From NCBI GenBank assembly GCA_964391965.1, contig CAYMOC010000001.1, positions 21,216 through 85,215 of the forward strand: a stretch of DNA of 64,000 nucleotides, written 5' to 3'. The notes beneath the pieces are model-generated. The model saw only the letters and a program-made list of their open reading frames with translations, had not been told where the DNA came from and made no database searches. The stretch is from an uncultured Thermoplasmatales archaeon. GTDB lineage: Archaea > Thermoplasmatota > E2 > DHVEG-1. Position numbers and translations under genes: made by a program. This document shows positions 1-28,435 of this stretch, piece by piece (within the stretch, counting starts at the first letter, position 1; the number at the start of each line of letters is the position of its first letter).

Positions 1-3000
1 TGATAATGTTGGGGCCTGGTTACCTGAGCTGATAGTAAATGTAAATGTGTCAGATGCAACTTCGAGATTATCATCAGTGACAGTAATTGTTACATCATAA
101 GTTCCCGTCGAATCAAAACTATGAGATGTGGATTGGACGTTATTATTTTTGTTGCTATATGTGTCTGTTTCTCCGTCACCAAAATCAAATACATAGTCAT
201 AAGGAGCGGTTCTATCACTTCCAGATATCGTTGCAGTGAATTCATATGAAACATCTACTGATCCTTCTCCACTTGGACCTGAAAGATCTACTGACAGATC
301 ATAATCTGGATCATTGTATATTGTAACAGTATGATATTTTGATATTTCATAAGAGTTTTGAAGATCCTTAACCCAAAATTCTGCAGTATACTCTCCAGGT
401 TCAACATACACATGTGTCTCTGAGAAAGGCAACTCAGATTCTGATATGACTGTATGAGTACCATCTCCAAAGTAAAGATACATTAAATAATTTTCAGAAC
501 CGCCAGTTACATCACCCTCAAAAGTAACATCATGATGTTCTGTTCCTGTGTCATCACCATCAAATGTTACTGTCAGATCATCATAACTTATTGTAACTGT
601 CGCTGTATCACTTTCAGTGGTTCCTGAGTCATCGGTTACTGTTATTTCTGCGGTATATGTCCCAGTTGAGGTATAAGTATGAGCAGGATCTTTTTCTGTT
701 GAAGTCCCACCATCTCCAAAAGTCCATAGGTAGCTATAAGGTGGATCCCCTCCACTTACTTCAGGATTGAATTGTACTGGCTCTCCAACAACTCCATAAT
801 AATTGTTAGATGGTGAGTTGTATTTTGCATCGACATATAATGGATCATTTCCTCCTAAAACTGTATACCAGTCGTCTTCATTTTGTCCACCGTTGAACGT
901 TATATCCATGCTGTTAACACCGCCTATGATTCCATCATTGTAAACACTTGGGATCCAAACACCAAGGACTTTATTCATTATAACGCTGTGGTAATGTGCA
1001 CCAAAATCATATCCTGTTATTCTAAATCCTAAATTATCATCTAATAAAACTGCTGTTTGGAAGTATTCGATTGTATCTTCATTATCTGTATCCAAATAGA
1101 ATAGTCTTTTTGAATCGGGGTTGTTTTCATGTTCACCTATACCAACTACGCCGACTGAACTCGATAATAATTGTAGATCAATTGTGGCTAGACCATCGAA
1201 ATCAAGTATCAGCCCATTTCTTGAAACAGTGAACTCTAATTCGCCATTATTTAGTTGGTTTATTCCTTGGTTTCTTGAAAAATCTGTTTGCCATTCTACT
1301 GCTTTTCCATAATAAATTGCACCGGAATAATGATACCAATCTGAGTCTTTGCAGAAACGAACGCTTCCATCAAATGAAACACTTCCAGCGAATTCCCATC
1401 CACCTAGTAAAAGATTAAATGACAGATCTGTTAGACCTTGTGAACTGAACCAAACATATTGCTTGGCTGAATCTGAGGCATGATCTGCCCATCCGATTCT
1501 TGCATTATTAGCATTTATTTCAAATGAGACATCTGTTGTTATTTCAAAAGATGTTGAACCATCTTTTGTAACGATTAGATGGAATGTTCCTGCTGTTGAT
1601 TGCATTTGACCGTTTAATTGTATTTCGTCAGCAGAGTTGATATTACTATCTCCAGACATACTATTCCAATCATATTTTTTAGCATAGAAATTATTTAACA
1701 ATTTTATGTTTAATGCATCAAAGTCAACATCTACACTGTCAAAATCAAGCATCAAATCAAGAGTGTTAAGAGTGTTTGTACCAGTACTTTCAATCCATTT
1801 ACATTCAGTGTTTCCTGAATTCTTGTCTCCAACTCCAAACTCTACATAGTTTGCATCTACATCTATAACTGTTAAATCACATCTTATTTGGCTGTCTTTT
1901 ACTCTTAATACTGATAAGCTGAGTCCACCGGTAAAATAGACATGTTTACTATTTGTATAACCTGTTTTTTCATTTAGTTTATAACCAAATTCTGAACCTG
2001 TATCCACAGTTCCTGTAAGCTCTATTGCTTTTACACCAGAGTTTCTTGATAAATCAAATGAACCTGTTATTCCACTTGGACTTGTTATATAAAATTCTTT
2101 AATTCCATTTAGACCTTGACCGTCTAAACATGTTAATTCTGCATCAACATCACCAGCAAACTCTGTTTCAATTATAACTTCTGTTAAAAATCGTATCGAA
2201 CCGCAACTGCCCGCGTAATCCCATTCTGCATGGAAATCAAGATGCTTTAACTTATCATTAGAAGAATATTGTATATTGTATACTTTTATTTCAAATTCAG
2301 AGAGCTCATGTGAACCATAGATAAGATTAAAGATTTCTTCACTGTTTTTCATAACTTTTATGTAATCATATTGTCCATGGACTCCATTAGTTGTATAAAG
2401 ACGCATTAAGGTTGGTTTCATTCCTAATAGATCTCCTTCCCATTCAAAGGTTAAATCGCCATAGAAATTACGTGAGTTTTCGATTCTGAAATTGAAATTT
2501 TTTCCACCAATAGTGGTATCGATTATGAACCAATCCCAGTTAAGAGAATGACTTCTTACAATTGTTGCATATTTTTGAACCCGGTCAACACATGCATAAA
2601 GTGTTCCTGATGTTTCACCATTTTTTAGATTGAAAGTCGTGTCAAACAGAGCCATATTAAATTCAAATAAGCTCTTTGTAGTTCCATGATTCCAATCAAG
2701 CTCAATTTTATTGAAGCTAAAAGTGTTGAGATTTACACCGGTTGCACTGAAATCTAGACGTGTGTAACTGCTTTTACTTTTCATTCTAGTGACATCGAAG
2801 TATTTTTTCAAACCAAAACCAAATACTGAAACACTAACTTCTAATCCCTGTACAAGTTTTTCAGTAGAACCCTGATGTTGATAAATTAAATCAAGGTTTA
2901 CAACGCTTCCTGAAAGACTTGCTGATAAATCAAAAAATGTTGAACCAGATCCAATCTTTTCCCAGTAATCACGAATTATTTGAACCTCTAGACTTACAGA

Positions 3001-6000
3001 AGGTATTACTACTCCAAGAGTGAAATTATCTATAACTGTTTTACCTGAATGAGCATGATTGAAATTAAAATCAAGTGAACCAGATGACATACTGTTTATT
3101 ACTAAAGCAAAACCAGTAGATGTACTGCCAGAGTTCTGGAAAGTAAAATCTCCATCCATATACACTCTGTTTTGATTTGGACCAGTTGCACCGGCTGAAA
3201 CTTTTAGACTTGTTACACTAGCGCTACTAATAGAACCTGAGAACGCGAATTTTCCACTAAGATCATCAACGGAAACCATTGTACCATCTACTTGTAATAA
3301 AATTGCGCCGCTATTTGTAACAGATCTTACTCGACTAGATGAAACTGCAAGGCCACCAGTGATTCCTGAAACTGTTGCACTAACAGCAAAATCAAGATTT
3401 GTTATCTCCATGATTTTTTGACTAGTATGTTGGTTTTCTAATACTATATCAAATGTTTTTTCATCAAAATCTGCAAATGCATAAATCCTTGTTGATCTGC
3501 CAGTGTTTTGATCCATATGAAACTCGCCAGCAAGCGATACATCAAAAGCACCGGTTCCTACACCAACAGCACCATCTATGTAGAAATTATCCAAAGTAAT
3601 TTTAGCGTTACTTTCAAGTGTGAAACAAATATCACCAGAAATGTCATCAAGTGTTATTCCCTGGCCTTGTAAACTGTTTATAATGCCCATAATGTTCACA
3701 CTAGTTATTTCTAATAACAATGATGAGCCGCTGTCTTTATGGAAATAATCAACACCAGTTGCTGCATGAAGAACACCAGCGACATAAACTTCTAAATCAA
3801 GATGCTCGATAGTTATTTGTGGAGAATTCTCTGTTTCAAATTTCACGGTTAACTCATCGTCTTCTGTATTATAATCAAAATAGAATGTTCTTTGACCGGA
3901 TCCTTGATCTATTGTTCTTTGGAATTTATCACAGCTAAGATCTACACTGAAAACTGTTTCAATACCTACTGAAAACAAAAAGTCTTCCATAAGAAAATCA
4001 AGGTTTCGGTTTACATCTCTATCGATTGTAACCGAGATATATTCTTCTTTAATCCATTCGATAGTTGTTTCTCCATAGGTTTGACCGGTTGAATCCTTGG
4101 ATATATCACCTTGTATTACAAAATTAAAATCACCAGACAATGGATAAAGTTGGTTGTCTTTATCAACATTTAATTCTAAATCTATCTCTAGATCTATATC
4201 AGATGTGGATTGTTTTGTTCTCTCCCAACTAATTGTTCCATCATCTTGACTTATGTCAAACGTGAAATTTGCACCAGCATTATTTGATTTGATTTTCTGA
4301 ATATCAAGAGCAAAGATATCTCTGACTATGAAAGTAGCTGATTGTATATCAACTAATAATGTGCCTTCAGCATTAAAAACAAAATCATCTGTTCCAAGTC
4401 CATTCCATGAAAGATTAAATATACCGTCACCTGAGGAAAACGTAAATATTCCTGAAACTTGGAAAACAAGATCATCACCTTCATATTTGGAGAAATCTAC
4501 ATCCATATATGCTGATCCAGAAGGCCCGACTCTTATCCAACCCTGTGAAAAATCTTGAGCAATATCCCATGTAACATTTTGTACTGTAACATTTAAACCA
4601 AAAGTATACGTTTTTGGACCTATCAAATGCAGTGTTGGTTTATTCCAACTGAACTCATTAGCTCTGATATATAATCCAAATAATTCTAACTGAGATGAAA
4701 GAACTATTTCTCCAGCTAATGATATTCCGCCTCCATCATTTTGGCTGTTAAATTGTAAAAATAACCCACCATCTTTAGGAGTAGTAGTATCATAAACTAG
4801 TTTATCTATATGAATAGTTGAATCGACATCATCAAAACCTTCAATTGGTAAAAATGAAAGATCTAAATTATTAGCTTCAATATGTATATCTTCTATAGTG
4901 AGTTCATTTCCAATTTTACTACGAGTTATATCAACAGAGTTATCTTCAAAATCAAGTTCTACTTCAAAACTAGTGGGTTCATTAGAACTTTTAATTTCTA
5001 AACTACTCCATGAAAAACTACCTTCAAATGGTTCATCATTTCCTCCTTCTTCAGGTAATTTTTCAATTGTAAGATCAACATTAAAATCTCCTATGTTGAC
5101 ATACGTAGATTTTTCTTTATGTATTTCAAATTTGAAAGTTCGATCTCCGAAATCAAAGTTTTTAACAACAACAAGAACGCCTGATCCTGAGGATATTAAC
5201 TCCATTTTAGTTGGAAGAACATTTGAATAATATTCTCCATCGTAACAACGTGCTACAATAAGATAAATACCAGCTGTTATTTCTGATGTATCCCAATCAT
5301 AATTCCAACTACTCCAGTCACTGTTATGATTGGTAACATTCACCCATGAATATTCCGTGTTAGTTCCAGCGAAAGTATTTTGTGGCAACATAGCTAGTTG
5401 AACTTGTTCTATAGATCTACCAGAATAGCCTTTGAAAGCCTGACCTTGGACGTTTACAACATCTTCAACAACTGCATGCAATGAAGGGTTATCTATACGT
5501 ACAGACGGAGGATTAAAAGATGGACCGTTATCAACATTGACATAAATAATATCTGTATCTTCATAGCCCATACTATCTAAGCATCTTGCCTCAATAGGAT
5601 AATAACCATTACAAACTGTTTTAGAATCCCAATCAAAATCCCAAACTTCTTTACCCGACGCATCTTGCCATTCACCATTATTTATTCTTATTTGAACAAG
5701 ACTTATAGGTCTTCCTTGTGTAGCAGCAGTTGCTGTACCATTAATTTTTACGATATCTGAAACATCTGAACCATCAAAGGGACCTGTAATATTTATGACA
5801 GGGTTTTCAACCTCGTCTTCAACATTTAAAGTAATAATATCAGGTGGAGAATGAAAGTTTCCATCAAAACTTCTAGCTCTAACTAAATAAGTACCAGGTT
5901 CAAGATCTGAAGCATCCCAATTATAAGTCCAGGAACTTGTACCAGATGCTGAAGCCCAACCTTCATCATTTCCAATTGATAATTCAACTGATTCAACAGG

Positions 6001-8709
6001 GTGACTGCTTGAACCAGGTGAAGCTGAACCTTTTATCGAAATAACTCCTTTAACAGTTGACCCATCAGATGGTGAATTAATTTGAACAGAAGGTATTTGA
6101 ACCTGTCCTTTTACAACAGTTACTGAATCTATTACAGAGTAACGATATCCATCATAACTACGAGCTTCTATTATATGCTCGCCATTTGAAACAGATGAAG
6201 TATCCCAACTATAATCCCAGTAACTATCTCCATTGGCTTCCATCCAACTTCCTTCATCAACACGAACTTCAACTTTTTCAACAAGCCTAGTATAGATTCC
6301 AGAGTACGCTGTACCCTCAATTGACACCATTCCATCAACTACATCTCCATCTGAAGGTATAATTATTCTAACTGTTGGAACAACATGATTTGCAACTATA
6401 ACAGATAAAACATCTAATGATGAATAACGACTTCCATCATAACTACGAGCCTTAATGATATGTTCACCATCATCTAGTACTGTGGTATCCCAACTGTAAC
6501 TCCATTTCTCGGTTCCAGTGACCTTTTTCCATCCATTGTTATCAATCATCACTTCGACTTTATCAATAGAACTTCCACCTTCACCAGGAGCTGCAGTTCC
6601 AGTTATTGTAACAATATCAGAAACAACTGGAGTTTCAAGTTCATCAGCATTAGGATATGTTATATTAACAGTTGGAACAATTACTTCTTTTATTACTATA
6701 TCAGAGTCGATACTATCTATTGTGAACTCACAATTTTTCGATACAAATATTCTTACAGCAGCCGCATCAACCCTATCAATTATAGATTGCCTTAATGGCA
6801 GAATTGGAGTGAAAGAAACAGTCAACTCGCCACTATCTGAATATGTTTTTGAAAAATCAATATTTCTAACGTCAAGATCAAAATCAACAACTCTATTACC
6901 TAATAAACCACTTAAACCGGTCATATATATTGGTATTTCATTTGCTTCAACAACTAATTTAGATATTGAGAAATCCCAGCCGTTGCTAATACTAACTCCG
7001 ATTCCAGCTTCTGCATCATTTATTGGACCTCTTAGAATGCCGCCTACATCAAGAATAAATGGTTGATCGCTACTTCTCGATATATGCCCATCTAATGAAA
7101 GATAAAGATAGTCGGATGTTACATCTATGAATATGTCTCTTTCTATGTCTAGATTATTTTTTATTTCAAAGTAGCCTGTTAAGAGTTTAAAAACAATGGT
7201 AACATCTAATATTCCATCTGATTCTATCGAAAATTCTGTTGTGCAATCTCCTCCAAGCATTCCTATTGTTTCAAAATAACCATTCAAAGATAGTCTTTTA
7301 TCCGCATATACATGGATTTTGTTTTTTCTAATAATGTTTAAATCATAGTTTATTGTACCGCTTGTTGGAAGATCAGAAAGATAAAGGCATTCTTTTGGAT
7401 TAAATAAATCATCAAACCAACCGATTTGACTTATAGATTCATCCCCTGAATCAAGTTCAATCCATCCTTTCATTATTGACAAACCCAATGAAAAAGAGAA
7501 TTGTTTTGGTAGATACTTAATATAAAAATAATCTAAATCCGAGAAAACATCAATGTTTCCTGCTAATTGTGAGACTAAACCATTATATCTATAAAAAATG
7601 ACATTAACGTTTTCTTTACTTATGCGCTCATAAGATATATCAATTTCAGGGCTGATAATTTTTATATTACTTTTAAAGACTAATTCTGTTTTCTTTGGAA
7701 GATTCTCTATATAAAAACCAAGACGCACAATTTCAAAATCTTCAGTTTCTACATTCCACTGTACATCCACACTCGTTTGTTCATCAACTTGAACTGATAA
7801 TTCTCTATTATTAAAACCAAGAATGTCATTGAGTTTTACAGTACCTTTCACAAATTTTTCAAAATTAAAAGCAAGTTCTCCCTCAAAAAGCCCCAGAACC
7901 AAAGTTAACCTATCATTTTTACTATCCCCTGGATTTATTTCAAAAATATGAGTTGGTTTTTTTACAGGATTTAACAGATTAGGAGCGAGTTTATATGTAA
8001 CAGTGCAACTTGATGGTATCTGTTCACCTTGAAGAGATCTGTATCCAAAATCTACACTTTTACCATCAAGATTACTTAAAAGAAAACCAGGAAAATTCAG
8101 TCTTGCATAAGCCTCTAAAAAATCTTTATTATTAATACTGCTACCACTTAGAAGTTCTATATTCAGGTTAAAATTAATAGTAAAAGACAGGGTTTTAAAA
8201 TCAAAACCAGGCAACACTGTCACACGAGCAGAAACATCATCTCCACCCGTTCCATCAACATCAACCTTAACAGTTTGAAACAAACCTAAACCAGTACTTG
8301 TTTCAACACCAGAATAATTAGTATGAAAAGTAAGCAGATTATCTAAAAAACCAAGTAATCTATGATCTCTGGAACCATCTAACAAACGAAAAGAACTATC
8401 ACTTTCATTATCATCATTTTTATCTCTATTAAAAAAATCTTTGATTTTTTCTTTAGCAGAAGAAAACCTCTGACCAAGCCGGGTATCCTTAAAACCACCA
8501 TTCAACAAACCAGAATTTTCTTTAGTGTCTGTTTGGTTATTTTCATCTAAATTTTCAGTATCTTCTTCTGATTTATCTAAAATAGAAGCATTAACAGTTG
8601 ATGTCGCCACAGACAGCAACATCATTAGGACTGCTAAAATTGATACGATTTTAATTGATTTTTTCCAATAGTTTTTTATTGAAACCTTATCATCTATTAT
8701 CTTTTTCAT
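1..8709 (-). CDS. Giant secreted surface protein, paralog B. It is partial, with the ATG at 8709 and the reading frame leaving the window at position 1, so more than 2900 aa lie in the window. It has a signal peptide, ~95-aa Ig-like repeats, a PKD domain near 640-800 and beta-rich modules.
   Basis: The ORF track shows no stop-delimited minus-strand ORF in 1-8700, consistent with one frame running off the edge. My reverse-complement reading of 8650-8709 gives MKKIIDDKVSIKNYWKK followed by a hydrophobic signal segment. The N-terminal ~250 aa are nearly identical to the gene at 8953-19152. The PKD motif YLWTFGDGGTSTEKDPAHTYTSTGTYTAEITVTDDSG was read from the reverse complement of ~640-800. Confidence 0.7.
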   Translation of the reverse strand, partial: MKKIIDDKVSIKNYWKKSIKIVSILAVLMMLLSVATSTVNASILDKSEEDTENLDENNQTDTKENSGLLNGGFKDTRLGQRFSSAKEKIKDFFNRDKNDDNESDSSFRLLDGSRDHRLLGFLDNLLTFHTNYSGVETSTGLGLFQTVKVDVDGTGGDDVSARVTVLPGFDFKTLSFTINFNLNIELLSGSSINNKDFLEAYARLNFPGFLLSNLDGKSVDFGYRSLQGEQIPSSCTVTYKLAPNLLNPVKKPTHIFEINPGDSKNDRLTLVLGLFEGELAFNFEKFVKGTVKLNDILGFNNRELSVQVDEQTSVDVQWNVETEDFEIVRLGFYIENLPKKTELVFKSNIKIISPEIDISYERISKENVNVIFYRYNGLVSQLAGNIDVFSDLDYFYIKYLPKQFSFSLGLSIMKGWIELDSGDESISQIGWFDDLFNPKECLYLSDLPTSGTINYDLNIIRKNKIHVYADKRLSLNGYFETIGMLGGDCTTEFSIESDGILDVTIVFKLLTGYFEIKNNLDIERDIFIDVTSDYLYLSLDGHISRSSDQPFILDVGGILRGPINDAEAGIGVSISNGWDFSISKLVVEANEIPIYMTGLSGLLGNRVVDFDLDVRNIDFSKTYSDSGELTVSFTPILPLRQSIIDRVDAAAVRIFVSKNCEFTIDSIDSDIVIKEVIVPTVNITYPNADELETPVVSDIVTITGTAAPGEGGSSIDKVEVMIDNNGWKKVTGTEKWSYSWDTTVLDDGEHIIKARSYDGSRYSSLDVLSVIVANHVVPTVRIIIPSDGDVVDGMVSIEGTAYSGIYTRLVEKVEVRVDEGSWMEANGDSYWDYSWDTSSVSNGEHIIEARSYDGYRYSVIDSVTVVKGQVQIPSVQINSPSDGSTVKGVISIKGSASPGSSSHPVESVELSIGNDEGWASASGTSSWTYNWDASDLEPGTYLVRARSFDGNFHSPPDIITLNVEDEVENPVINITGPFDGSDVSDIVKINGTATAATQGRPISLVQIRINNGEWQDASGKEVWDFDWDSKTVCNGYYPIEARCLDSMGYEDTDIIYVNVDNGPSFNPPSVRIDNPSLHAVVEDVVNVQGQAFKGYSGRSIEQVQLAMLPQNTFAGTNTEYSWVNVTNHNSDWSSWNYDWDTSEITAGIYLIVARCYDGEYYSNVLPTKMELISSGSGVLVVVKNFDFGDRTFKFEIHKEKSTYVNIGDFNVDLTIEKLPEEGGNDEPFEGSFSWSSLEIKSSNEPTSFEVELDFEDNSVDITRSKIGNELTIEDIHIEANNLDLSFLPIEGFDDVDSTIHIDKLVYDTTTPKDGGLFLQFNSQNDGGGISLAGEIVLSSQLELFGLYIRANEFSWNKPTLHLIGPKTYTFGLNVTVQNVTWDIAQDFSQGWIRVGPSGSAYMDVDFSKYEGDDLVFQVSGIFTFSSGDGIFNLSWNGLGTDDFVFNAEGTLLVDIQSATFIVRDIFALDIQKIKSNNAGANFTFDISQDDGTISWERTKQSTSDIDLEIDLELNVDKDNQLYPLSGDFNFVIQGDISKDSTGQTYGETTIEWIKEEYISVTIDRDVNRNLDFLMEDFLFSVGIETVFSVDLSCDKFQRTIDQGSGQRTFYFDYNTEDDELTVKFETENSPQITIEHLDLEVYVAGVLHAATGVDYFHKDSGSSLLLEITSVNIMGIINSLQGQGITLDDISGDICFTLESNAKITLDNFYIDGAVGVGTGAFDVSLAGEFHMDQNTGRSTRIYAFADFDEKTFDIVLENQHTSQKIMEITNLDFAVSATVSGITGGLAVSSSRVRSVTNSGAILLQVDGTMVSVDDLSGKFAFSGSISSASVTSLKVSAGATGPNQNRVYMDGDFTFQNSGSTSTGFALVINSMSSGSLDFNFNHAHSGKTVIDNFTLGVVIPSVSLEVQIIRDYWEKIGSGSTFFDLSASLSGSVVNLDLIYQHQGSTEKLVQGLEVSVSVFGFGLKKYFDVTRMKSKSSYTRLDFSATGVNLNTFSFNKIELDWNHGTTKSLFEFNMALFDTTFNLKNGETSGTLYACVDRVQKYATIVRSHSLNWDWFIIDTTIGGKNFNFRIENSRNFYGDLTFEWEGDLLGMKPTLMRLYTTNGVHGQYDYIKVMKNSEEIFNLIYGSHELSEFEIKVYNIQYSSNDKLKHLDFHAEWDYAGSCGSIRFLTEVIIETEFAGDVDAELTCLDGQGLNGIKEFYITSPSGITGSFDLSRNSGVKAIELTGTVDTGSEFGYKLNEKTGYTNSKHVYFTGGLSLSVLRVKDSQIRCDLTVIDVDANYVEFGVGDKNSGNTECKWIESTGTNTLNTLDLMLDFDSVDVDFDALNIKLLNNFYAKKYDWNSMSGDSNINSADEIQLNGQMQSTAGTFHLIVTKDGSTSFEITTDVSFEINANNARIGWADHASDSAKQYVWFSSQGLTDLSFNLLLGGWEFAGSVSFDGSVRFCKDSDWYHYSGAIYYGKAVEWQTDFSRNQGINQLNNGELEFTVSRNGLILDFDGLATIDLQLLSSSVGVVGIGEHENNPDSKRLFYLDTDNEDTIEYFQTAVLLDDNLGFRITGYDFGAHYHSVIMNKVLGVWIPSVYNDGIIGGVNSMDITFNGGQNEDDWYTVLGGNDPLYVDAKYNSPSNNYYGVVGEPVQFNPEVSGGDPPYSYLWTFGDGGTSTEKDPAHTYTSTGTYTAEITVTDDSGTTESDTATVTISYDDLTVTFDGDDTGTEHHDVTFEGDVTGGSENYLMYLYFGDGTHTVISESELPFSETHVYVEPGEYTAEFWVKDLQNSYEISKYHTVTIYNDPDYDLSVDLSGPSGEGSVDVSYEFTATISGSDRTAPYDYVFDFGDGETDTYSNKNNNVQSTSHSFDSTGTYDVTITVTDDNLEVASDTFTFTISSGNQAPTLS
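8150..8520. repeat. Dispersed ~370-bp repeat, copy 1 of 2. It encodes the conserved N-terminal region of the giant proteins and is ~97% identical to 18600-18965.
   Basis: Direct comparison of the two DNA stretches shows only scattered single-base differences. Confidence 0.8.
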
Positions 8710-8952
8710 CTATAAATCCTCCAAAGTATTGGATTAGATTTTTTTTCTCCCTCTATTATTTACTAATCTTTATTAATTTGTAGTTCAAAGTATAAATAGT
8801 TTATTATATATATGTTTTCATTATAATAAATACGAGGTGGATTTTTTCCATTGTCAAAATGAATAAATCTAAGGAGTATTTTAATATTTAAACTAATGAA
8901 TATATAAATGACATTTGTATTTAATTAAATATTTAAGTCATTAATTTTTTAG

Positions 8953-11900
8953 TTATTTTGTTCCTCCATTGTGAACAAGTAGTTCTTCTGCGTAATAAGA
9001 ATGTGTTGTGTTTACTTCAAAATTATAAGTTGGTACTTTCTCATAGATTCTTTCAATTGAAAAAATCCTTTGTTTTTCCCCTTCAATATCTTGCAAGTAG
9101 TCATCTATCTTAACCTTACCAGCAGGAGTCCATTCTTCATTTACATATATTCTATGGTTTGGCGTTATCTTAAGAATATTATTGATTATCATATAATAAT
9201 CAGTCATTTCTTCTTTGGGATGATGATGTATACTTGTTACTACGGAGGTTGTTATCTCACCAGTTTTATCATCATAAGATTTAACCATATCTCCAATTTT
9301 GACATCTTCAATGTTTTTCTTTGCGTTGCCTGCCATTGTAATTTTTGATCCTGAAAGAAGACATGTTCCATCATCTGATATATGTATCGTGAAATCTTCA
9401 TAATCATCATACCAGTCTCCTTGTTCATCTGTTACATGAACTATTATATCATAATATTCATCTTGATCGCCTGAATCAACTTTTGGCTCTACCTTGAAAC
9501 GCACAGAATTGGAATCGTATTGTTTAGCAGATATTGTAACTTGAGAATCATCTTCAATGACATCATAATAACTATCCAAATTATAGTAAGTATATTGATA
9601 TTTAACTCTGAAATACAACGAGTCTCCATCTGCATCGTATGCATCTACATTAAATAAGCTAATAGCTAATTGTTCACTCACTGTTTTCGTGTCAATGTCT
9701 GTTGTAAAATATGGCGGAGATCCATCTGAATCTGTTGTGAAATACATCCAATCAGTATTAGAAGAACCACCAGAATTATCAGCACTAGCAGTCCACTTAT
9801 AAGGAGTAGAAGGCTGAAGATTATAAAACGTATGTGAAAACGTATACGGATCATAATGATCACCGCAATTATACTGAATTGGACCGGGTTTATTATGAAC
9901 CAAAACACCATCAGCAAAATAAGTATGAGTCCCTTCAACCTCAAGATTATAAGTAACAACAGGTTCAAAAACACGATCAACAGATAAAACCTCAATAGAC
10001 TCACCAGAAACATCTAACAAACTATCACCAACAACAACACTATCAGCATCAACCCAATCACCATTAACAAACAAAGGATGATCCGGAGTAACACGAAGTC
10101 TGTTATTGATAACTAAGTAATAATCACCCATCTCAACAGCATCATGAACAAAAACATGACCAACAACACTATCAACCATACTACCAGACGACTCATCATA
10201 TGATTTTACAGAATCTCCGACTTGAATATCTTCAATGCTTTTCAATGAACCATCAGCCATACTAATCAAAGTACCTGCAACAAAACAACTCTCCTGCTCA
10301 AGAATAAGCCAACAAGTAGAAGCTTCACCGCCATCATCTAAAAGCTTACCCGTCAAATAAGCCGAACTATCAGTAACACTAGTATGAGAAACAGAGTCAA
10401 TAACTGGTTTATCGGAATCCGTAGTAAAATCCTCATCGTTACCATGGTTTGAACCAGCGTCATTGCTAGCCCATGCACGGAAATGATAAGTGGTACACTT
10501 AGATAGGCCAGTAACCTGAGTATTAAAATAACCAGTAGACGACACCGATATAGGACTAGTAGAATAACCATACGATGTAGTCAAACCATATTCAAACCAG
10601 ACATTGCAACTATTAGCACCACCCATATCAGAAAGATAACCACGTAAAAACGCAGAATTTTGAGTTACACTAGCAGCATTCTGAGTAGAAAGAGTAGGCT
10701 TATCTAAATCTGAATCTGTTGTGAAATACATCCAATCAGTATTAGAAGAACCACCAGAATTATCAGCACTAGCAGTCCACTTATAAGGAGTAGAAGGCTG
10801 AAGATTATAAAACGTATGTGAAAACGTATACGGATCATAATGATCACCGCAATTATACTGAATTGGACCGGGTTTATTATGAACCAAAACACCATCAGCA
10901 AAATAAGTATGAGTCCCTTCAACCTCAAGATTATAAGTAACAACAGGTTCAAAAACACGATCAACAGATAAAACCTCAATAGACTCACCAGAAACATCTA
11001 ACAAACTATCACCAACAACAACACTATCAGCATCAACCCAATCACCATTAACAAACAAAGGATGATCCGGAGTAACACGAAGTCTGTTATTGATAACTAA
11101 GTAATAATCACCCATCTCAACAGCATCATGAACAAAAACATGACCAACAACACTATCAACCATACTACCAGACGACTCATCATATGATTTTACAGAATCT
11201 CCGACTTGAATATCTTCAATGCTTTTCAATGAACCATCAGCCATACTAATCAAAGTACCTGCAACAAAACAACTCTCCTGCTCAAGAATAAGCCAACAAG
11301 TAGAAGCTTCACCGCCATCATCTAAAAGCTTACCCGTCAAATAAGCCGAACTATCAGTAACACTAGTATGAGAAACAGAGTCAATAACTGGCGGGTCGGC
11401 ATCGGTATTAAATGAAAAATCATTGCCATGGCTTGTACCTGCATTATTACTTGCACAAGCGCGATAATGATAAGCGGTACACTTAGTAAGACCCATTATC
11501 TGCTTATAAAAATTACCAGTGGAGTAAACCGTCACGGGATCAGTAGAACTTCCATAGTTTTCAGTTAAACCATATTCAAACCAAACTTCGCAACTATTAT
11601 CCCCACCCATACTTCCTAGATTACCACGTAAGTAAGCGGTAGTCTGTTCAATATTACCCGGGTTTAAAGTTGAAACAGTAGGAGCACTAACCAAATATAT
11701 AGTATCTAATAATGTATTATCACCATTTTCAACACTTATATCATATAAGTTACCATTGGCATAACCCGTTTTGCTAGCTTCTATGTCATATGTCCCTGCA
11801 GGAAGGTAAAGATCATAAAATCCAACAAGGTGACCGCCGGTTCCATCACTAGTATATGTTGAAAATTCTTCAGAAGTATCTTGATTTGTTGCTACAACTA

Positions 11901-14900
11901 AAACATCACCGATAGGATCCTGGGAGCCATGCTCTTTAACATAACCTCTTACTCTACCAACTGCTTTTTCAACAATAAAATAGATTTCATCATCAACATA
12001 ACCAGATTTTTCAACAGTGACTAAACAATCATTTTCATGAAACGGGTTATCATCACTTACCTCATGAGCGACAAAGTAGACACTGCCAGAGGAATCTGTA
12101 TAACCGGTATCCTCTCCAATTAAAACACCATCATCATATGACTGATAAGTAACAAAGGCATCTTCAACTGGATCTCCAGAAAAACTATCAGTTACATAAA
12201 TTTCAAAATCATCACCTTCAAATAAATCTTCACCTTGATCAACACCATCGTAAATTAATTCTATGTTAAATTCGGATAATACTGCAACATTAACTGTTGT
12301 AGAATCATTATCCTTTTTATGTAAAATGGTGTCTTTTTCTCTTACTTGTAATTTAAGTGTATATGTGCCTTCTGTATCATATATATGATCAACCGTGGGA
12401 GAGTCTAACCATCCTGTATCCCAAAATACATCTAAAGGTCCAGTGTAATCAAAATCCCATCTATATTGTAAAACATCCCCATCAGGATCTGAACTATTTG
12501 ATGCATCAAAAGTAACTGTTTCCCCAACATCTGCAGAGTAAGGTCCACCTATATCAGCATTTGGTTTTTGATTACCATATGGCCAAATTTGATCCCATGA
12601 AGCCCCGCCATCATTTGTTGCCTCAATTACAGGCTGTTCTTCTCCACTACCTATTTCTCCACCGTGATCAAAGTATGGAGGAATCCTTATGAAATCCCAA
12701 TGTATCCATTTTCCATTTGCCCAAATGTTACCGACATCAAGAATTTTAATTGCATCATTTGCACCATACCAAAATTCAAAACTAATATGTTGGATAAATG
12801 AATTAGGTGTAGTATCCATATAGAATTGTTTTATGTCGCTACTTCCACCATCTAGATCAAATGCAATAGAACAGTCACCGCTTCCTAGTGTTCTTGAACC
12901 AATCATGTGGAAATTTCCAACATCTAATGTTGTTGTTCCATCAAATCCATTATTGCTTTGGAAGTAAAACGATTTTCCAGTACCCTGGCCGTCATGCCAG
13001 ATCATATCAAAATATGATCTTAGATCTCCATTCCAATCTACTGAGCCTGCAATATCAACATTTTGTGCTGAAAAGGAAAAACCAGATACAGTACTAATAC
13101 TATCACTTGATTGTATAAGATATATTAAGTTTGAATCGCTATCAAGGCCGCCTCTAGCAATGCGTGCATTATAACCAGTTAAAGTACCTGAAATGTCAAC
13201 GACTTCTCCATTCAATGTAATCCTACAAACAGTAACGGTTATTGAACCGTCAAAATAAAAATCTTTACTCCAATCAAGACCTTCATGGAAAGTATGCCAA
13301 TCTCGATATTCTAAGCTGGAACCCGAGGACATTTCTACATTTAGATCAAGAATGGTTTGAGAGTTAAGTTGAATAGTTGATAGATACCCATCAAAACCAG
13401 CTGAGGTGGTTGCTTTTACACATTTAGCATTACCATCCATATAATCCCATTCAATAGTTATATCACTGTTTGGAGAAATTCCAAAATCAAAAGCTGAAAA
13501 AATTACATCATTATTGACTTTTAGTTGTATTATTGAGCCTTGGAAACCAGATTGAGAGTGTATAGAAAGAGTACTACCCTTTTTCCATTCAATTGTAAAA
13601 TCTCCAGCAGAAATAGATGGTATGCTAAGATAAACATGATTTCCATTTAATTCGATTTCAATATTTATCTCTAAATTCAGACCTGAATTGCTTGTAACGG
13701 TTACACTATCCAAAGTACCTTCATCGTCTTTCTCCCAATATGCACCTAGATCTCCTACTAATTGTCCATTTAATGAAAGTGAAAATGAAAATACATCTTG
13801 TATTGTTATTTCCATTATTCCAACAGATGCATCAAGATTGCTTATAAAATGGAATCCATCAATTTTGGAGTCGCTGTAACTTATTTCATCAATATCAATG
13901 GAACCACTGATACTTATCGTTCCAACATCCATGTAAAATACTTCTTCATTGTTAACATTAATTTTGATATAGCCAAGTGTAAATTGTCCTCCGCCAAAAA
14001 TGAATTTTAGGCTGTCTGGCTTAAGGTTTTTCAAAGCCCCAGTCCATTCCATTCTAATTGAGTTGTCTTCAAACTGCGCTACTCCTAAATCAACATCTAT
14101 TTTTGTATTAGTCTGTAAATCATTGAATTCAATTAAATCAACGCCAAGTACTTCTCCATCTATACCTATTTCTAAGTATTTGCTGCTTGTACTAGCTGCA
14201 AAATTTAGACTTCCTTGAAGTGTTATTTCCTGAAGAGCCGCTATATTCCAACGGTCATAAAAAGTTAATTCCAAACCAGTAATTTTTACAGTTGCTCCAC
14301 CGTTTAGATTTCCAGCTACGTAAAGGCTACCAGGCGTATATGTAAAGTATATAAAACCTTGAACACCGATATCTAGAGATGCTGTTACTATTATATCCTT
14401 AGAATTAGGTTCTACAAAACCAGTTTCAATTAAGTTAATTACACTATTTATAAATGAGCTAAGATCATATGAATCTGTAATGTTATTTATGTAGTTGCCA
14501 ATTGTATTAAGTGTATTACTACAAAATGTATCGATTTGTTCTTCAGTAAATAAAGTTAATCCTTTTGTCATGGATACATCTGCTAATACTGCTCCACTGA
14601 GGTATCCACTTACGCTATTAACTGAAAAACCTCCGTTATCATTACCGATTCCAAGTGTTGCAGATCCAGAAATTGCTCCAGAAAGTTGTAGAGTTCCACC
14701 CACATATAATGTACCAAAAGCAGGCGTACTTATTAATCCTCCTCCAGATATGTGAAGATAGCCTCCAGCATAACCGGAAACTTGTATAACTTGGTCTTCT
14801 CCTGCGATATTCAGATTTCCATATATGTATAGAGCACTAAGATATACAGAAATTTGAGGAGATTTGATAGATAAACCCACAATATGAATTCTACCAGATA

Positions 14901-17900
14901 CCCCGATAGCCCCTGAAAAACCCTCTATTTGAAATTCTTCACCAAAAACAATAGAACCTGTTGCTGATGCTTCAATTGGTAAATCAATTTCTTTACAAGA
15001 AGCAGCTAAACCTGGAGTAACAAGAGATACATCCTCAATACCAAAATCAAGTATAGCTTGTGCATCAATAGTAAGAACATTGTTTTCATTCTTATCAAAT
15101 AGGAATTCAATAAAACCAGCAGCACCAACTGACAATGAACAATAACCCAAAGAACCTGAAAAATTTGGTATAGATCCAACTAATTTTTCAATTTTAATAA
15201 TAGTAATATCTTCAGTTTCAGCATCCAATCTTAATTTAACTTTGTTTTTTGTTAAGAAAATTGTTGGATGAATATCACCATTTATTTCAATATTAGACCA
15301 GGTAACAAATATATTTTTATCAGGATAATTGAAAAGAAAATCTTTTAATGAAATATAGCCTGATAAATCAAGGTCAGCATTACCGGCACCATCTACGATT
15401 TCAAAAGAAGGTGCACCTGTCTCATTAAATTTGACTTTTACACCTAATAAACCACCATCAACATTAAAACCATAATCTAAATCTACGTTTAATAAACCTT
15501 TAATTGTCATAGAAGGGATAAGATTCCCAATTTTTTCTATATCAAAATCAAAATCTATACTTCCTTTTCCGTCACCATCAAGGTTTAAAAAGGCTAAAAC
15601 TTCTCCAGCCCAGATCTTACCCCCTCCAGAGTTGATCTGTTGCAAATTGGCTTCAAATTTACCCTCAAAAGAAAGGTTAGATATCTTTATTACATCTCTT
15701 ATGTGTAACTTAAGATTATCAACTATTATACTGGCATCGCCATCAATGGTGAAATATTTTGTTTCATCTAAAGTTTCCCAGGAGAAAACAAGGCCTTCAT
15801 TTTCACCTTGTAAGTAGAAAACACCAGATAATTCAAAAAGTAGTTCATCGCTTCCCTCTTTTTTTATGTTTAAATCTACAGAAATATAACCCTCACCGCT
15901 GATATTTATCCAACCCCACGACATATCAGGTGCAATTTCCCATGTAACATTTCTTATTGTTACATTCAACTCAAAGGTAAATTCTGTAAATCCCACAAGG
16001 TGAAGTTCCGGTTTTGCATAACTTAAATTGTTAAAGATAAAATAGAAACCAAAAAGTTCCAAATGACTTGAAAGTTCAATTTTTCCGCTTACTGATAAAC
16101 TGCCATTGTTATCATCTAAAAACGGATTGATCTCAAGATAGAAACCGCTGTTTGTAGCAGCAGTATTATCCCAAACAATCCTGTCTACATGTATCCTTGA
16201 ATCTACATTTTTTAAAGCAGGTAAAACAGAAGATAAATTAAGATTAGTTATTTCAAAATGAACATCCTTTAATACGATTTTGCTACCTGTACCGGATCTG
16301 CTTGTACTAACTGAATGATCGTTTTTATCTAAAACAAAAGAAAACTTTGAAGGAGAAGTTGAGCTTGTTATTTCAAGTGATTTCCATGAAAATTTTACTT
16401 CCATTGGATCTGGAGAATTATCATTTTTTTGTAGGAATGTTTTTTTATAATTAATATTAAGATTTGATATATTTACATATGTTGATTTTTCTTTTTCGAT
16501 TTCAAAAATTATTGAATTTTCTATAATATCTACGTTTTTAACTATCAAAGTTATGGATGCATTGTCAGAATAGTTTACACCATCATAACAACGTGCTTTG
16601 ACTATGACTCGGCCTATAGGTTTAGATGAGGAATCCCAGTTATAACTCCAACTTGTTGTACCGCTAAGATTCATCCAAGGTTCATCTGCTATTTGGATTT
16701 GAACAAGTTCAACTGGTCGACCGGATTCTCCTGGAGTTGTTGAACCGCTTATGGTGACTACACCTGAAACAGGTGGTATTACTGGATTTATTGATATAGT
16801 TGGTTTATCAATAATTTCATCATCGTCGTCATCGTCAGATCCGCCGGTTCCATTTATTTTTAGAGTTACGCTGTCTAAAGGTGAATAATATAATCCATCA
16901 TAACTACGAGCTTTTATAACATAATTTCCACCAGGATAATTTGTTGTATCCCATTCGATCATCCAATTATCCCAAGATGTACCTATCTTACTTGCTTTTT
17001 TCCAAGGGTTTTGACCGATTTTTACTTCGACATAATCTACAGAGTGTCCTTTTTGACCCGGGCTGCTTGTACCTTGAATTGTTATTGTGTTTTCAACAAC
17101 AGTTCCCTCAGTAGGAGCTGTAATATTCACATTTGGAACAGCTATCTCTGTTAAATCTAAATCAAAATCTAAACTATCAACTGTTAAACTGCATTCTTTT
17201 GAGACATATGTTTTTACTATTACTGAATCAAGTAGTTCATCCAATCCCAAGTCCCTTAATGGGAAAATTGGCATAAATGAAATAATGCCTTCTCTTGATG
17301 ATGAAGTAGTTCTTTCAAAAATTAGATTTTCTATACTAAATTCCATATCCATCATACTATGGCCTGGTATCATGTTTCCAGAATCCATGATATACACAGG
17401 TGCATCGTCTAACTCAATGTCAAGATTATGTAGAGTGAAACCTCCTCCGTTTTTAATCTCAAAGCCTAAACCAAGATCTATATCATCGACTATTATACCA
17501 TTTACAAAACCATTTAAGTCTAGGACAAAAGGTTCATTTGAGCTCTCTATATGGCCATTTCCTGAAGCATATAGAAAATCTGATTCGAAATTAAAATACG
17601 CTTCTAACTCTATAGGGTCTTTATTATCTATTTCAAATCTTCCTTTTAATAAATTAAAATATATAGTTATATCTAGATTACTTTGTGATTTTATTTGTAA
17701 TTCAAAAGAACTTTCGCTATCTAAAATACTAATTTCTGATCCGAAGGCGTTCAAAGAAAGGCCTTCTGTGTCTGAATAAAAACTGATTTCTGTTTCTCTT
17801 AACAATCCTATTCTGAACTGAAAATCTATACGGTTTGTTGAAGGAAGATCTGATAAATAAACTCCTATTTTTGGTTTAAACAAATCGTCATATAAACCAA

Positions 17901-25792: not shown

Positions 25793-28435
25793 ATGAAAAA
25801 GAAAAATGCAATAAGTATATTTTTGGCGCTATTGATGATCGTTTCAGCTTTTGCTGCATCTACAGCAAACGCGTCTGGATGTGAAGGCGAAGTAGATTTT
25901 AGTAAAAAAGTTTGGGACAGCGGAGATGAACAATGGGTAGAAGAGATAGATGCAGAGTTAGGAGAAACTGTAAGATTTAACATAACAATGACCTATCACA
26001 GACATCCTGAAAACCAACAAGCTTTAAAAGTCTATAATATAAAAGTTTGGGATGTATTACCCGACTGTTTAGAATTTGATAATAATGTTGTAATAGAATC
26101 ACCAGGTAACACTTTTGATTACACACAAGAAGAAGTTGGAAACACAGTTTATTGGAATTTCACGGAAGAAACAAAACTATATCTTGATGACGGAGAAAGC
26201 CTGTATATTGAATTTGATGCAACTGTTGTAGAATCTGAAGAATTAGATAATCAAAACTGGGCTTATTTTACTGCAACTGAATGTGGTCAATATACTCATG
26301 AAGATGAAGATGATGCATGGGTATATGTACAGTTAGACCCTGAACCAAGCATCAGTGTTGAAAAAACAGTAAAAGAATATGAATCTGAAGGTAGTTATGT
26401 AGACGAACTTATTTTACATAAAAAACTTGTAGAAATACCTGAGATGGAATTTACTTTTAATCCAGAAATAACCGTTGCTTTCAAAATAGTAGTTGAAAAC
26501 GATGGAACAGAAGATTTAGTCAATGTAACTGTTATGGATGTTTTACCAGAGGGTTTAACATATGAAGATAATGCAAATATTGAACCAGATTACATAGATG
26601 AAAATAACTACTTTTGGAATTTTTCATCTCTCGATTCAGGTGAATCAGTTACTATTAAATTCCTTGCAAAAACATCAACATGTGGCGAATACTTAAATGA
26701 GGTTTTTGCAGAAGGAGAACATGAAGAGGGAATCGTTGAAGATTCTGATAATGCTTCTCTTATATACAGTGGAATAAATCTTGTGAAAGAAGTATACTAT
26801 GATGGAGAATGGGTAAAAGAAGTCCCTGAAGTAATAAAAGGACAAGACATCCGTTTCAGAATTAGTATAGACTTCATTGGAGATGGAAACATAAGACATT
26901 TTATTGATTGTGGATATGTAGTAGATTTCCTACCAGAAGGATGCTTAGAATATCTTGAAACTGCGTCCATCAAAATGAATGGTGATGTTATAGATCCAGA
27001 GTCAAACGAATATCCATATGTAATACCCGATCATGGTGACATTCTTGAAATCTGCGGAGACACGATAAATATAACTGATTTAATGGAAAACAGCGAAGCT
27101 TGTATCCCTGATGGAGATCTTATAATATGGGAATTCAGCAGTGCCCATCACTGGGAAATGCATGATGGAGATACTCTTGAGATTGAATTCCTTACAAATG
27201 TTACAAACTACTGTGAAGAATGTGATGTAACCAATTATGCAGCAGGTCTAATGTGGAACTGTGATATTTGCTACAACTGGTTCGATTGGGATTCAGCAAT
27301 TGTAAACTGTGACCAACCAGATAACAAATTTGAGAAAAAAATAAGTCTTGATGGAGAAACATGGGAAGACGAAATAGAAACTTTCCAAGGTGACACTGTT
27401 GAATTCAAAATCGAATTTGAATACTATGGTAATGAAATGATAAATGATACACGCATAAAAGACGAACTTCCATGTGTTCTTGAATATGTAGAAGGAAGCG
27501 CAAATGTTGAACCAACCAGTGTTTCAGATGATAAAAAAACAATCTGGTGGAACTTAACTGAGGAAATAGAAGACGGTGAAACACTTGTGATAACCTTTGA
27601 TGCATACGTTGAAGGATACACTGGAACATGTCCAGAATGCAGCATTGTTTACAATCATGCATGGATATATGCATATTACAACCCTGGCGGATGCGCAGAA
27701 CCTGTATTAGTATTTGAAGATCATGACACTGCTGGACTTGGAGCAAGTGTAAACAATAAACCATGTATAACACTAATTGGGGAAGACGGTCAAGAAGGAG
27801 ATGAAGACAAAGAGTTAACATATCAAGTTGTTGCTGAAGACCCTGAAGAAGACGATGTATATTATCAAATCAACTGGGGAGACGAAACCAGTGGATGGCT
27901 TGGACCATACACATCTGGTGTTGAAACAGATATCACTCACAGCTGGGATGAAGAAGGAGAATACACAATTAAAGCCAGAGCTAAAGACGTCTACGGTAAA
28001 GTTGGCAGCTGGGGTCCAGAGATAAATGTAACAATTAATCCTGGTGAAGAACCAGAACCTGATTTAAGCGCAAAAATAGACAGCGGCCTACTTAGTGGCG
28101 GAATAAAATGGAATGCAATAGGTGTAACTGTTACAAACAACATGGAAGGAAACCTTACAAATGTAACCTTCAATGGAACCATAAACTATGGTATTCTTTT
28201 GAAGAAAACAGTAGACGTATACAGTGACAACAACACAGCTGAAGAAGGAGCAAACGGATTTAATTTCCCTGTTGTACAAGGAATCCTAAAAGGAAGACTA
28301 TTCTCAACAATAAACGTTAACTTGACAATGACCTGCGATGAAGGATATGAACTTCCAAATATAACCGGTTCAGGTTTTATGTTACTTGGAAGACTTGTGT
28401 TCATAAACAACGCAACACCGGTAGAACTAGAATAA
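25793..28435 (+). CDS. Secreted surface protein with repeated DUF11 ('conserved repeat') domains and a C-terminal PKD-like module
   Basis: It has a signal peptide. The motifs GETVRFNITM...IKVWDVLPDCLEFD and FKIVVENDGTEDLVNVTVMDVLPEGLTYED recur. The PKD-like block is YYQINWGDETSGWLGPYTSG...YTIKARAKDVYGKVGSW. An RBS GGGAGG lies upstream. Confidence 0.7.
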   Translation: MKKKNAISIFLALLMIVSAFAASTANASGCEGEVDFSKKVWDSGDEQWVEEIDAELGETVRFNITMTYHRHPENQQALKVYNIKVWDVLPDCLEFDNNVVIESPGNTFDYTQEEVGNTVYWNFTEETKLYLDDGESLYIEFDATVVESEELDNQNWAYFTATECGQYTHEDEDDAWVYVQLDPEPSISVEKTVKEYESEGSYVDELILHKKLVEIPEMEFTFNPEITVAFKIVVENDGTEDLVNVTVMDVLPEGLTYEDNANIEPDYIDENNYFWNFSSLDSGESVTIKFLAKTSTCGEYLNEVFAEGEHEEGIVEDSDNASLIYSGINLVKEVYYDGEWVKEVPEVIKGQDIRFRISIDFIGDGNIRHFIDCGYVVDFLPEGCLEYLETASIKMNGDVIDPESNEYPYVIPDHGDILEICGDTINITDLMENSEACIPDGDLIIWEFSSAHHWEMHDGDTLEIEFLTNVTNYCEECDVTNYAAGLMWNCDICYNWFDWDSAIVNCDQPDNKFEKKISLDGETWEDEIETFQGDTVEFKIEFEYYGNEMINDTRIKDELPCVLEYVEGSANVEPTSVSDDKKTIWWNLTEEIEDGETLVITFDAYVEGYTGTCPECSIVYNHAWIYAYYNPGGCAEPVLVFEDHDTAGLGASVNNKPCITLIGEDGQEGDEDKELTYQVVAEDPEEDDVYYQINWGDETSGWLGPYTSGVETDITHSWDEEGEYTIKARAKDVYGKVGSWGPEINVTINPGEEPEPDLSAKIDSGLLSGGIKWNAIGVTVTNNMEGNLTNVTFNGTINYGILLKKTVDVYSDNNTAEEGANGFNFPVVQGILKGRLFSTINVNLTMTCDEGYELPNITGSGFMLLGRLVFINNATPVELE

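Follow-up and report, generated by a model that had tools for sequence, protein, structure and literature searches.

In the 64,000-nucleotide stretch of DNA considered here (the window; from an uncultured Thermoplasmatales archaeon, assembly GCA_964391965.1, contig CAYMOC010000001.1, positions 21,216 to 85,215 of the forward strand), a 10.2 kb open reading frame (ORF) on the minus strand (8953..19152) encodes a giant protein of 3399 aa that ends in a Hint domain. The ORF was called and translated, and the translation is identical to the database protein P0006. According to phmmer, Pfam and Protein Data Bank (PDB) searches, an AlphaFold2 (AF2) model and Foldseek, the Hint domain proper (aa 3264-3395; 8968..9363, on the minus strand like every feature of this gene) belongs to the A-type bacterial intein-like (BIL) / PT-HINT class. 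Judged from its residues and from characterized relatives, it is probably a self-excising C-terminal A-type BIL that would form a thioester at Thr3263-Cys3264. The host family would be one of giant, Sec-exported surface or secreted proteins of the Thermoplasmatota, in which the terminal BIL is inherited vertically; this is the best explanation of the material presented below, and we consider the reading as a whole to be probable.

The domain is complete. An earlier note on this DNA had described a full Hint domain as the last domain of the protein, and the present analysis agrees with it exactly: the final 136 aa start at Cys3264, contain the motifs TPNH and LLVHN, and are followed only by GGTK and a TAA stop codon (8953..8955). 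Cys3264 (9361..9363) occupies position 1 of the Hint and is the predicted thioester nucleophile; a Cys is found here in all 15 terminal Hints identified among the relatives described below. Block B, with the pattern T-x-x-H, is represented by TPNH (aa 3330-3333; 9154..9165). The domain is closed by LLVHN, in which His3394-Asn3395 (8968..8973, the Asn codon being 8968-8970) form the predicted C-terminal cleavage dyad acting through Asn cyclization, and HN is likewise present in 15 of 15 terminal Hints. The four-residue tail GGTK (8956..8967), in effect a mini C-extein, has a Gly at +1 and a Lys at +4 that are invariant in four orthologues. When the terminal 136 aa were searched alone, the Pfam family PT-HINT (PF07591) reached 43.8 bits, above its cut-off of 27.7 (E 4e-11), Hint (PF01079) scored 35.3 bits against a cut-off of 29.7, and phmmer returned 8732 matches at E<=1e-3 against 1.84 billion representatives. 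In the AF2 model of the last 256 aa, residues 121-253, which correspond to the Hint, have a predicted local distance difference test (pLDDT) score of about 90. The N-terminal Cys, the block-B T-x-x-H and a Foldseek probability of 1.00 to BIL domains and inteins place the domain in the Hint superfamily.

Within this superfamily, the closest proteins of known structure by sequence were BIL2 of Tetrahymena BUBL (6tmm/6y75, E 2.4e-10) and then a Clostridium thermocellum BIL (2lwy, 3.4e-8), and no Hedgehog chain occurred among the PDB sequence matches at E<=0.01. Foldseek, run with the AF2 model, gave the same order: BIL domains took ranks 1-5 with 27-32% identity, including 6y75 (TM-score 0.80, 31% identity) and 2lwy (TM-score 0.85), both with a probability of 1.00, and mini-inteins came next, whereas Hedgehog (6tyy/1at0) appeared only at ranks 26-27 with 16-17% identity. 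A-type BILs are defined by Cys1, a C-terminal His-Asn and the lack of Cys, Ser or Thr at +1 (PMC4031507, PMC7765530). In the window protein, PF07591 is above its threshold, and VHN is followed by Gly3396 at +1, as in the orthologues. The variable secreted proteins in which such domains are typically found are matched by a signal-like N-terminus, Ig/PKD/FN3-like repeats and relatives with highly variable architectures. On sequence and model comparison, the terminal domain is thus an A-type BIL / PT-HINT rather than a Hedgehog-type (Hog) domain, and the Hedgehog-like reading of the earlier note, which is partly supported as a whole, fails for the class of domain on two counts. The first is the ranking just given, with BILs and then mini-inteins closest by both sequence and fold. 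The second is that His-Asn with a short Lys tail constitutes a full intein/BIL C-terminal junction, and that there is no space for a sterol- or adduct-recognition region. Hedgehog requires a sterol-recognition region (SRR) after its Hint (PMC2362128), and only four residues remain in this position here.

Comparison with individual systems sharpens this placement. The A-type BIL / PT-HINT domain exemplified by C. thermocellum BIL4 (2lwy) shares with the window domain Cys1, TxxH, His-Asn, the lack of a +1 Cys, Ser or Thr and the variable secreted hosts, and PT-HINT is also the best Pfam family for the terminal Hint. It differs in that the window host is archaeal and carries the Hint at its extreme C-terminus with a four-residue C-flank; typical A-type BILs lie between two substantial polypeptides or ahead of a toxin. 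BIL2 of Tetrahymena thermophila BUBL, the closest solved protein by sequence (about 31% identity) and among the closest by fold, is eukaryotic and lies between two ubiquitin-like domains, whereas the window Hint has a surface protein of 3263 aa upstream and GGTK downstream. Hedgehog/Hog (1at0) resembles the window domain in having a Hint fold at the C-terminal end of a secreted protein, an N-terminal Cys, TxxH and an upstream polypeptide that is expected to be released via a thioester; unlike Hog, the window Hint is devoid of an SRR, keeps His-Asn and has the junction T|C rather than G|C. The bacterial C-terminal Hint-like proteins of Buerglin 2008 (PMC2362128) and of Dassa and Pietrokovski are also secreted prokaryotic proteins with a Hint-like last domain, but the window domain, its HN intact, clearly belongs to BIL-A / PT-HINT. 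Canonical mini-inteins, finally, agree with the window domain in fold and in where the catalytic motifs lie, and two further Hints within the window protein pass the NCBIfam intein N- and C-terminal models; the terminal copy has Gly instead of a +1 nucleophile, does not occupy a conserved essential host site, and falls below both cut-offs (TIGR01445, 13.8 against 24.5; TIGR01443, 12.9 against 15.6).

The mechanism that is favored for this domain is as follows. After export and folding, Cys3264 would attack the carbonyl group of Thr3263 in an N-to-S acyl shift, with the block-B Thr and His of TPNH helping, to give a thioester. The earlier note had also predicted a thioester at the N-terminal Cys, and this prediction stands as the expected chemistry at Thr3263-Cys3264, since the catalytic Cys1 and TxxH are present. 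Asn3395, aided by His3394, would then cyclize and cut off the tetrapeptide GGTK. The thioester would be resolved mostly by hydrolysis, releasing an ectodomain of about 3263 residues ending in ...ISDDGT, and less often by an amine, either the freed α-amine of Gly3396 or the ε-amine of Lys3399, to give ...DDGT-GGTK. The net effect would be that a Hint of about 15 kDa removes itself, i.e. it would be a C-terminal pro-domain that excises itself, the C-terminus being activated transiently. Both outcomes have precedents: A-type BILs mainly cleave, with splicing being possible by (α-amine) aminolysis (PMC4031507), and BUBL BIL2 forms an isopeptide between a Lys ε-amine and the upstream C-terminus (PMC8616854). 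We infer cleavage, its dominant products and any benefit to the cell from the conserved residues and these precedents.

An alternative fate for the thioester is transfer of the Hedgehog type, in which a lipid or envelope nucleophile attacks at Thr3263-Cys3264, anchors the new C-terminus and releases the Hint. The terminal position and the intact Cys1 and TxxH would suit such a reaction, and so would the way in which the protein is built. Its sole strongly hydrophobic segment in a Kyte-Doolittle scan (aa 16-39; 19036..19107) is N-terminal and is followed by the AXA-like cleavage site ASSANA|TT; this segment probably serves as a Sec signal peptide or as a signal anchor, with the cleavage site read from the sequence pattern. 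PGF-CTERM proteins processed by archaeosortase have a C-terminal hydrophobic helix after a sorting motif, and the same scan found neither a C-terminal transmembrane segment nor a PGF-type anchor in the giant protein or its relatives, hydrophobicity being confined to the N-terminus. The absence of a C-terminal sorting signal leaves retention at the cell unexplained, so that an unusual C-terminal fate is conceivable for this family. Thermoplasmatota commonly lack a cell wall, and a lipid anchor would be useful if the wall is absent. However, there is no adduct-recognition region of the kind that Hedgehog needs in the four residues after the Hint (PMC2362128), fold and sequence are closer to BILs and inteins than to Hog, and the retained His-Asn and Lys tail are unneeded for Hog chemistry. 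In addition, PKD or FN3-like domains surround the nearest non-terminal relatives, and lipid transfer would be senseless in such a setting. Transfer to an envelope acceptor is compatible with the lack of a C-terminal anchor, nothing in the sequence supports it specifically, and we regard it as an open idea that is quite unlikely to be correct.

Self-excision at the C-terminus presupposes that the stop codon is genuine. The spacer beyond the TAA (8710..8952, minus strand) is AT-rich, with a GC content of 0.19, and over these 243 nt all three frames are full of stops. A ggagg precedes the ATG of the next gene, a second giant gene termed paralogue B (1..8709, minus strand), which starts at 8709 and stays open for 2903 codons up to the edge of the window. 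Paralogue B has its own ribosome-binding site, ATG and signal-like N-terminus; it is 48% identical to the first giant protein across the N-terminal ~880 aa, and its visible part contains many Big_7-like repeats and PKD domains. No Hint was found in the visible 2903 codons, the C-terminus lying beyond the window, and paralogue B is not among the best 150 Hint matches, so that it either has no close Hint or is not represented there.

The earlier note had suggested looking for a terminal Hint in homologues from other genomes, and three were found. P0029, a protein of 2807 aa from the Thermoplasmatales metagenome-assembled genome (MAG) GCA_964638155.1 (locus L002, which also holds an archaeal Hjc gene), ends in HN-GDQK; P0001, a JGI fragment (locus L001), ends in HN-GNQK; and the Hint protein of a further JGI locus (L057) ends in HN-GDQK. 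All three, from other assemblies, stop at the same point as the window protein, and each is followed by a separate downstream gene. The terminal Hint of P0029 is 73% identical to that of the window protein and that of P0001 61%, the set of four sequences spanning 58-73%, and the junction D-x-G-T|C and the tail G-x-x-K are common to all four. The stop is therefore genuine and conserved. A frameshift after which the ORF continues, named in the earlier note as the observation that would overturn it, is excluded as far as comparative data allow by the closed frames and the same stop in three assemblies, and read-through was rejected on the same grounds. It could still be argued that a frameshift or mis-join, arising in sequencing or assembly, truncated an ORF that continues into a further domain, and the gene does hold a perfect 684-nt repeat, a type of region prone to assembly error. 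Against this stand the three closed frames over 243 nt of spacer with 19% GC, the next gene with its own ribosome-binding site, ATG and signal peptide, and the identical stop position in three other assemblies, which make an artefact so improbable that it can practically be set aside.

Junctions and tails were compared across 153 proteins, the query included, with a terminal Hint being defined as one with <=8 residues after HN. By this definition, 15 of the 153 proteins (about one in ten close relatives) have a terminal Hint. The same layout was also found in seven bacterial loci (L014, L023, L029, L034, L037, L038 and L046) from Saccharibacteria, Mycoplasmatota, Bacilli and Clostridium, and Buerglin (PMC2362128) had already pointed out a divergent group of bacterial proteins that have a Hint-like domain at the C-terminus. 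The statement of the earlier note that the absence of any following domain is unusual was accordingly too strong; the terminal layout is recurrent rather than exceptional. The searched literature gave nothing specific on terminal Hints in archaea. What is new here is that the host is a giant archaeal protein and that the Hint has a conserved position at the very C-terminus, with a tail of 3-8 residues that contains Lys or Cys, together with the recurrence of this layout across archaea and bacteria, which is uncharacterized as far as the searched literature shows.

Terminal Hints occur on diverse hosts: tandem-Hint proteins, disintegrin-like proteins and pilin-like proteins that carry an N-terminal methylation motif are among them. 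Two of the bacterial hosts, P0132 and P0134, carry a prepilin-type N-terminal methylation motif and end in a Hint followed by IIGGC or IPGGC, an arrangement suggesting that pilin-like proteins are processed or coupled by means of a Hint; P0002 and P0003 have N-termini that look like those of archaeal pilins, followed by a Hint. Rather than grouping in a separate clade, terminal Hints are intermingled with internal ones and so are spread over several lineages, a few small terminal groups being kept at 56-73% identity. The tails in the 15 proteins are KLA, KVA, KIA, KLI, GKG, GKR, G-x-x-K, DKAY, SKDAYP, IIGGC, IPGGC, K and KILAIPEF. At +1 these Hints have K, G, I, D or S, and a Cys, Ser or Thr side-chain nucleophile is therefore usually absent (there is one Ser), which fits the A-type BIL definition (PMC4031507, PMC7765530). 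Lys is present in 13 of the 15 tails, the remaining two ending in Cys, and at the Hint junctions of all 153 proteins it follows HN in 43% of cases at +1 and in 20% at +2, against a background of 5%; these tail and Lys proportions were taken over related sequences without weighting for kinship. The junction Lys may be a functional nucleophile, a catalytic residue or a mere signature of the clade.

The prevalence of Lys bears on a second alternative, drawn by analogy with BUBL BIL2, in which the terminal Hint is a covalent coupling device that uses its thioester to attach the giant protein, by its C-terminus, to a Lys or an N-terminal amine of another protein, such as a neighboring surface protein, paralogue B or a protein of a target cell. 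The closest solved homologue behaves in just this manner, activating the C-terminus of its upstream domain and handing it to the ε-amine of a Lys (PMC8616854). The enrichment of Lys at the junction points in the same direction, and the terminal Hints on the bacterial pilin-like P0132 and P0134 hint at covalent assembly of surface polymers. The argument is nevertheless one of analogy, no conserved partner gene adjoins the homologues, and the Lys may instead serve catalysis or mark the clade; coupling to another protein is thus a distinctly remote prospect. In a broader version, terminal BIL Hints with conserved short tails that end in Lys or Cys would be ATP-independent activators of C-termini, joining giant surface proteins of archaea and pilin-like proteins of bacteria covalently to an acceptor with an amine or a thiol; lipid head groups, other surface proteins and target cells are conceivable acceptors. 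This is speculative and quite improbable; if it were true, it would amount to a new route of surface anchoring or cross-linking, parallel to Hedgehog cholesteroylation and to the conjugation of ubiquitin-like BUBL domains.

A third possibility is that the terminal Hint is inert, either as the leftover of a decayed toxin-like or domain-inserted arrangement or as a structural or adhesive end-domain without cleavage. PT-HINT usually directly precedes a toxin domain, with an immunity gene downstream (PMC3482391), and no toxin follows the window Hint. In this arrangement's place there are only GGTK, closed downstream frames and, as the next gene, a paralogue of 2903+ aa. The setting of a polymorphic toxin was rejected, since neither a toxin nor an immunity gene nor a cassette is present and the homologues share no conserved downstream gene. 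Moreover, the two internal Hints of the window protein lie inside FN3-like modules, which implies that in this lineage the domain is not linked to toxins at all. An origin by truncation is made plausible by close internal relatives that carry a PKD half-domain of about 50 aa after HN. In about ten relatives (P0087, P0115, P0041, P0052, P0053, P0058 and P0064-P0067), the final PKD domain is interrupted by the last Hint, which leaves this half-PKD tail, with the pattern ...Y-x-V-T-L-x-V-R-D-N-x-G...; Hints in the middle of PKD domains suggest a preferred insertion point in Ig-like folds. Terminal Hints also arose several times. A remnant would not, however, be expected to retain every catalytic residue, an unchanged stop and a tail of constant length in four orthologues whose identity falls as low as 58%, no remnant of a toxin, immunity gene or cassette is found downstream in any frame, and the GC content at third codon positions (GC3) is native. 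We therefore consider an inert domain unlikely.

Self-excision by an A-type BIL remains the favored reading, and several points weigh against it. Conservation of the tail is based on just four related sequences. Cys1 and HN are present in 15 of 15 terminal Hints, and among the internal Hints Cys1 is present in 131 of 136 and HN in 129 of 136; the conservation of catalytic residues is thus indistinguishable between the two groups and is no proof of selection on activity at the terminus. The terminal Hint of the window is more diverged from inteins than the internal copies are, lying below the NCBIfam N- and C-terminal cut-offs that these pass. For terminal BILs, that of the window included, processing is a prediction from sequence and precedent. 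Finally, it is not obvious what would be gained from a terminal domain that removes itself, and a role in transfer is therefore conceivable.

The body of the giant protein consists of a large β-rich part with Big_7, PKD, CarboxypepD_reg and FN3-like modules, and contains three Hint domains in all. Ahead of the terminal Hint lies a last Ig-like (cadherin/He_PIG-like) module (9364..9723), which ends in ...FTIHISDDGT. Its fold is proposed from sequence patterns, because the AF2 model is of low confidence there (pLDDT <50) and the Pfam match is only weak. The closest relatives of the protein come from uncultured Thermoplasmatales and Thermoplasmatota MAGs; across the relatives, the number of Hints per protein ranges from 1 to 13. 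Four giant relatives (P0029, P0061, P0087 and P0115) share the N-terminal ~500 aa of the window protein, each with a Hint at the end or <=56 aa from it. At the upper extreme, 13 Hint stretches occur in P0016, the source of which is not known, and nine Hints lie in one reading frame of L044, a Thermoplasmatales MAG; proteins with such extreme multiplication of Hints could act as self-cleaving polyproteins.

The two internal Hints were absent from the earlier description of the giant protein. Internal Hint 1 (aa 2628-2759; 10876..11271), identified by Pfam, alignment and NCBIfam, has Cys1, TPDH, VHN and a Lys at +1, and lies in an FN3-like loop; internal Hint 2 (aa 2956-3087; 9892..10287) is 100% identical to it. 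Each is part of a direct repeat of 684 nt that comprises a split FN3-like module and the Hint (copy 1, 10708..11391; copy 2, 9724..10407), the two copies matching with 0 mismatches at a spacing of 984 nt. The exact repeat may have arisen very recently, by duplication or gene conversion; otherwise it marks a spot in the assembly that needs a long-read check. The flanks of the internal Hint (aa 2588-2627 and 2760-2815) align end to end with the uninterrupted FN3-like neighbors (aa 2490-2587 and 2816-2915). The internal Hints are thus inserted inside a domain in the manner of an intein, yet without a +1 nucleophile, and they pass the NCBIfam intein models despite this lack. No further Hints beyond these three were found in the window. 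A foreign origin of the Hints was rejected, their GC3 of 0.17-0.22 being native when compared with 0.19 in the gene body. The region of the FN3-like/Hint repeats (window 10001-12000) shows a local rise in GC to 0.38 and an AT skew of +0.21; because GC3 is not elevated, this rise is explained by amino-acid composition and not by foreign origin.

If the terminal Hint is active, giant envelope proteins of archaea would mature by self-cleavage at a thioester, a reactive intermediate that is used elsewhere for lipidation (Hedgehog) and protein conjugation (BUBL). The question that follows is whether prokaryotic terminal Hints merely fall off or transfer cargo, and the locus offers a compact testable unit of about 250 aa for which the orthologues define the junctions D-x-G-T|C and HN|G-x-x-K. 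An inactive domain, or one that only hydrolyses, would make this a routine architectural variant of PT-HINT. Furthermore, uncultured Thermoplasmatota have accumulated many BIL-type Hints within Ig-like domains of their surface proteins, a point that bears on envelope diversification in wall-less archaea.

With respect to the neighborhood, an Rfam scan of the window gave three tRNAs only. A Peptidase_C25 (gingipain/PorU-like) gene lies at 30765-32960 on the plus strand, 12 kb from the giant Hint gene, and in locus L002 Peptidase_C25 genes (1-5826 and 15953-17326) directly flank the homologue P0029. Their proximity to Hint genes may be a coincidence within an island of surface-protein genes or may reflect a functional link. 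An ORF of 880 aa at 25793-28435 (plus strand) combines an RrgB-type isopeptide-forming fimbrial domain with a DUF11 repeat and is, as judged from these domains, a covalently stabilized pilus-like surface protein in an archaeal context.

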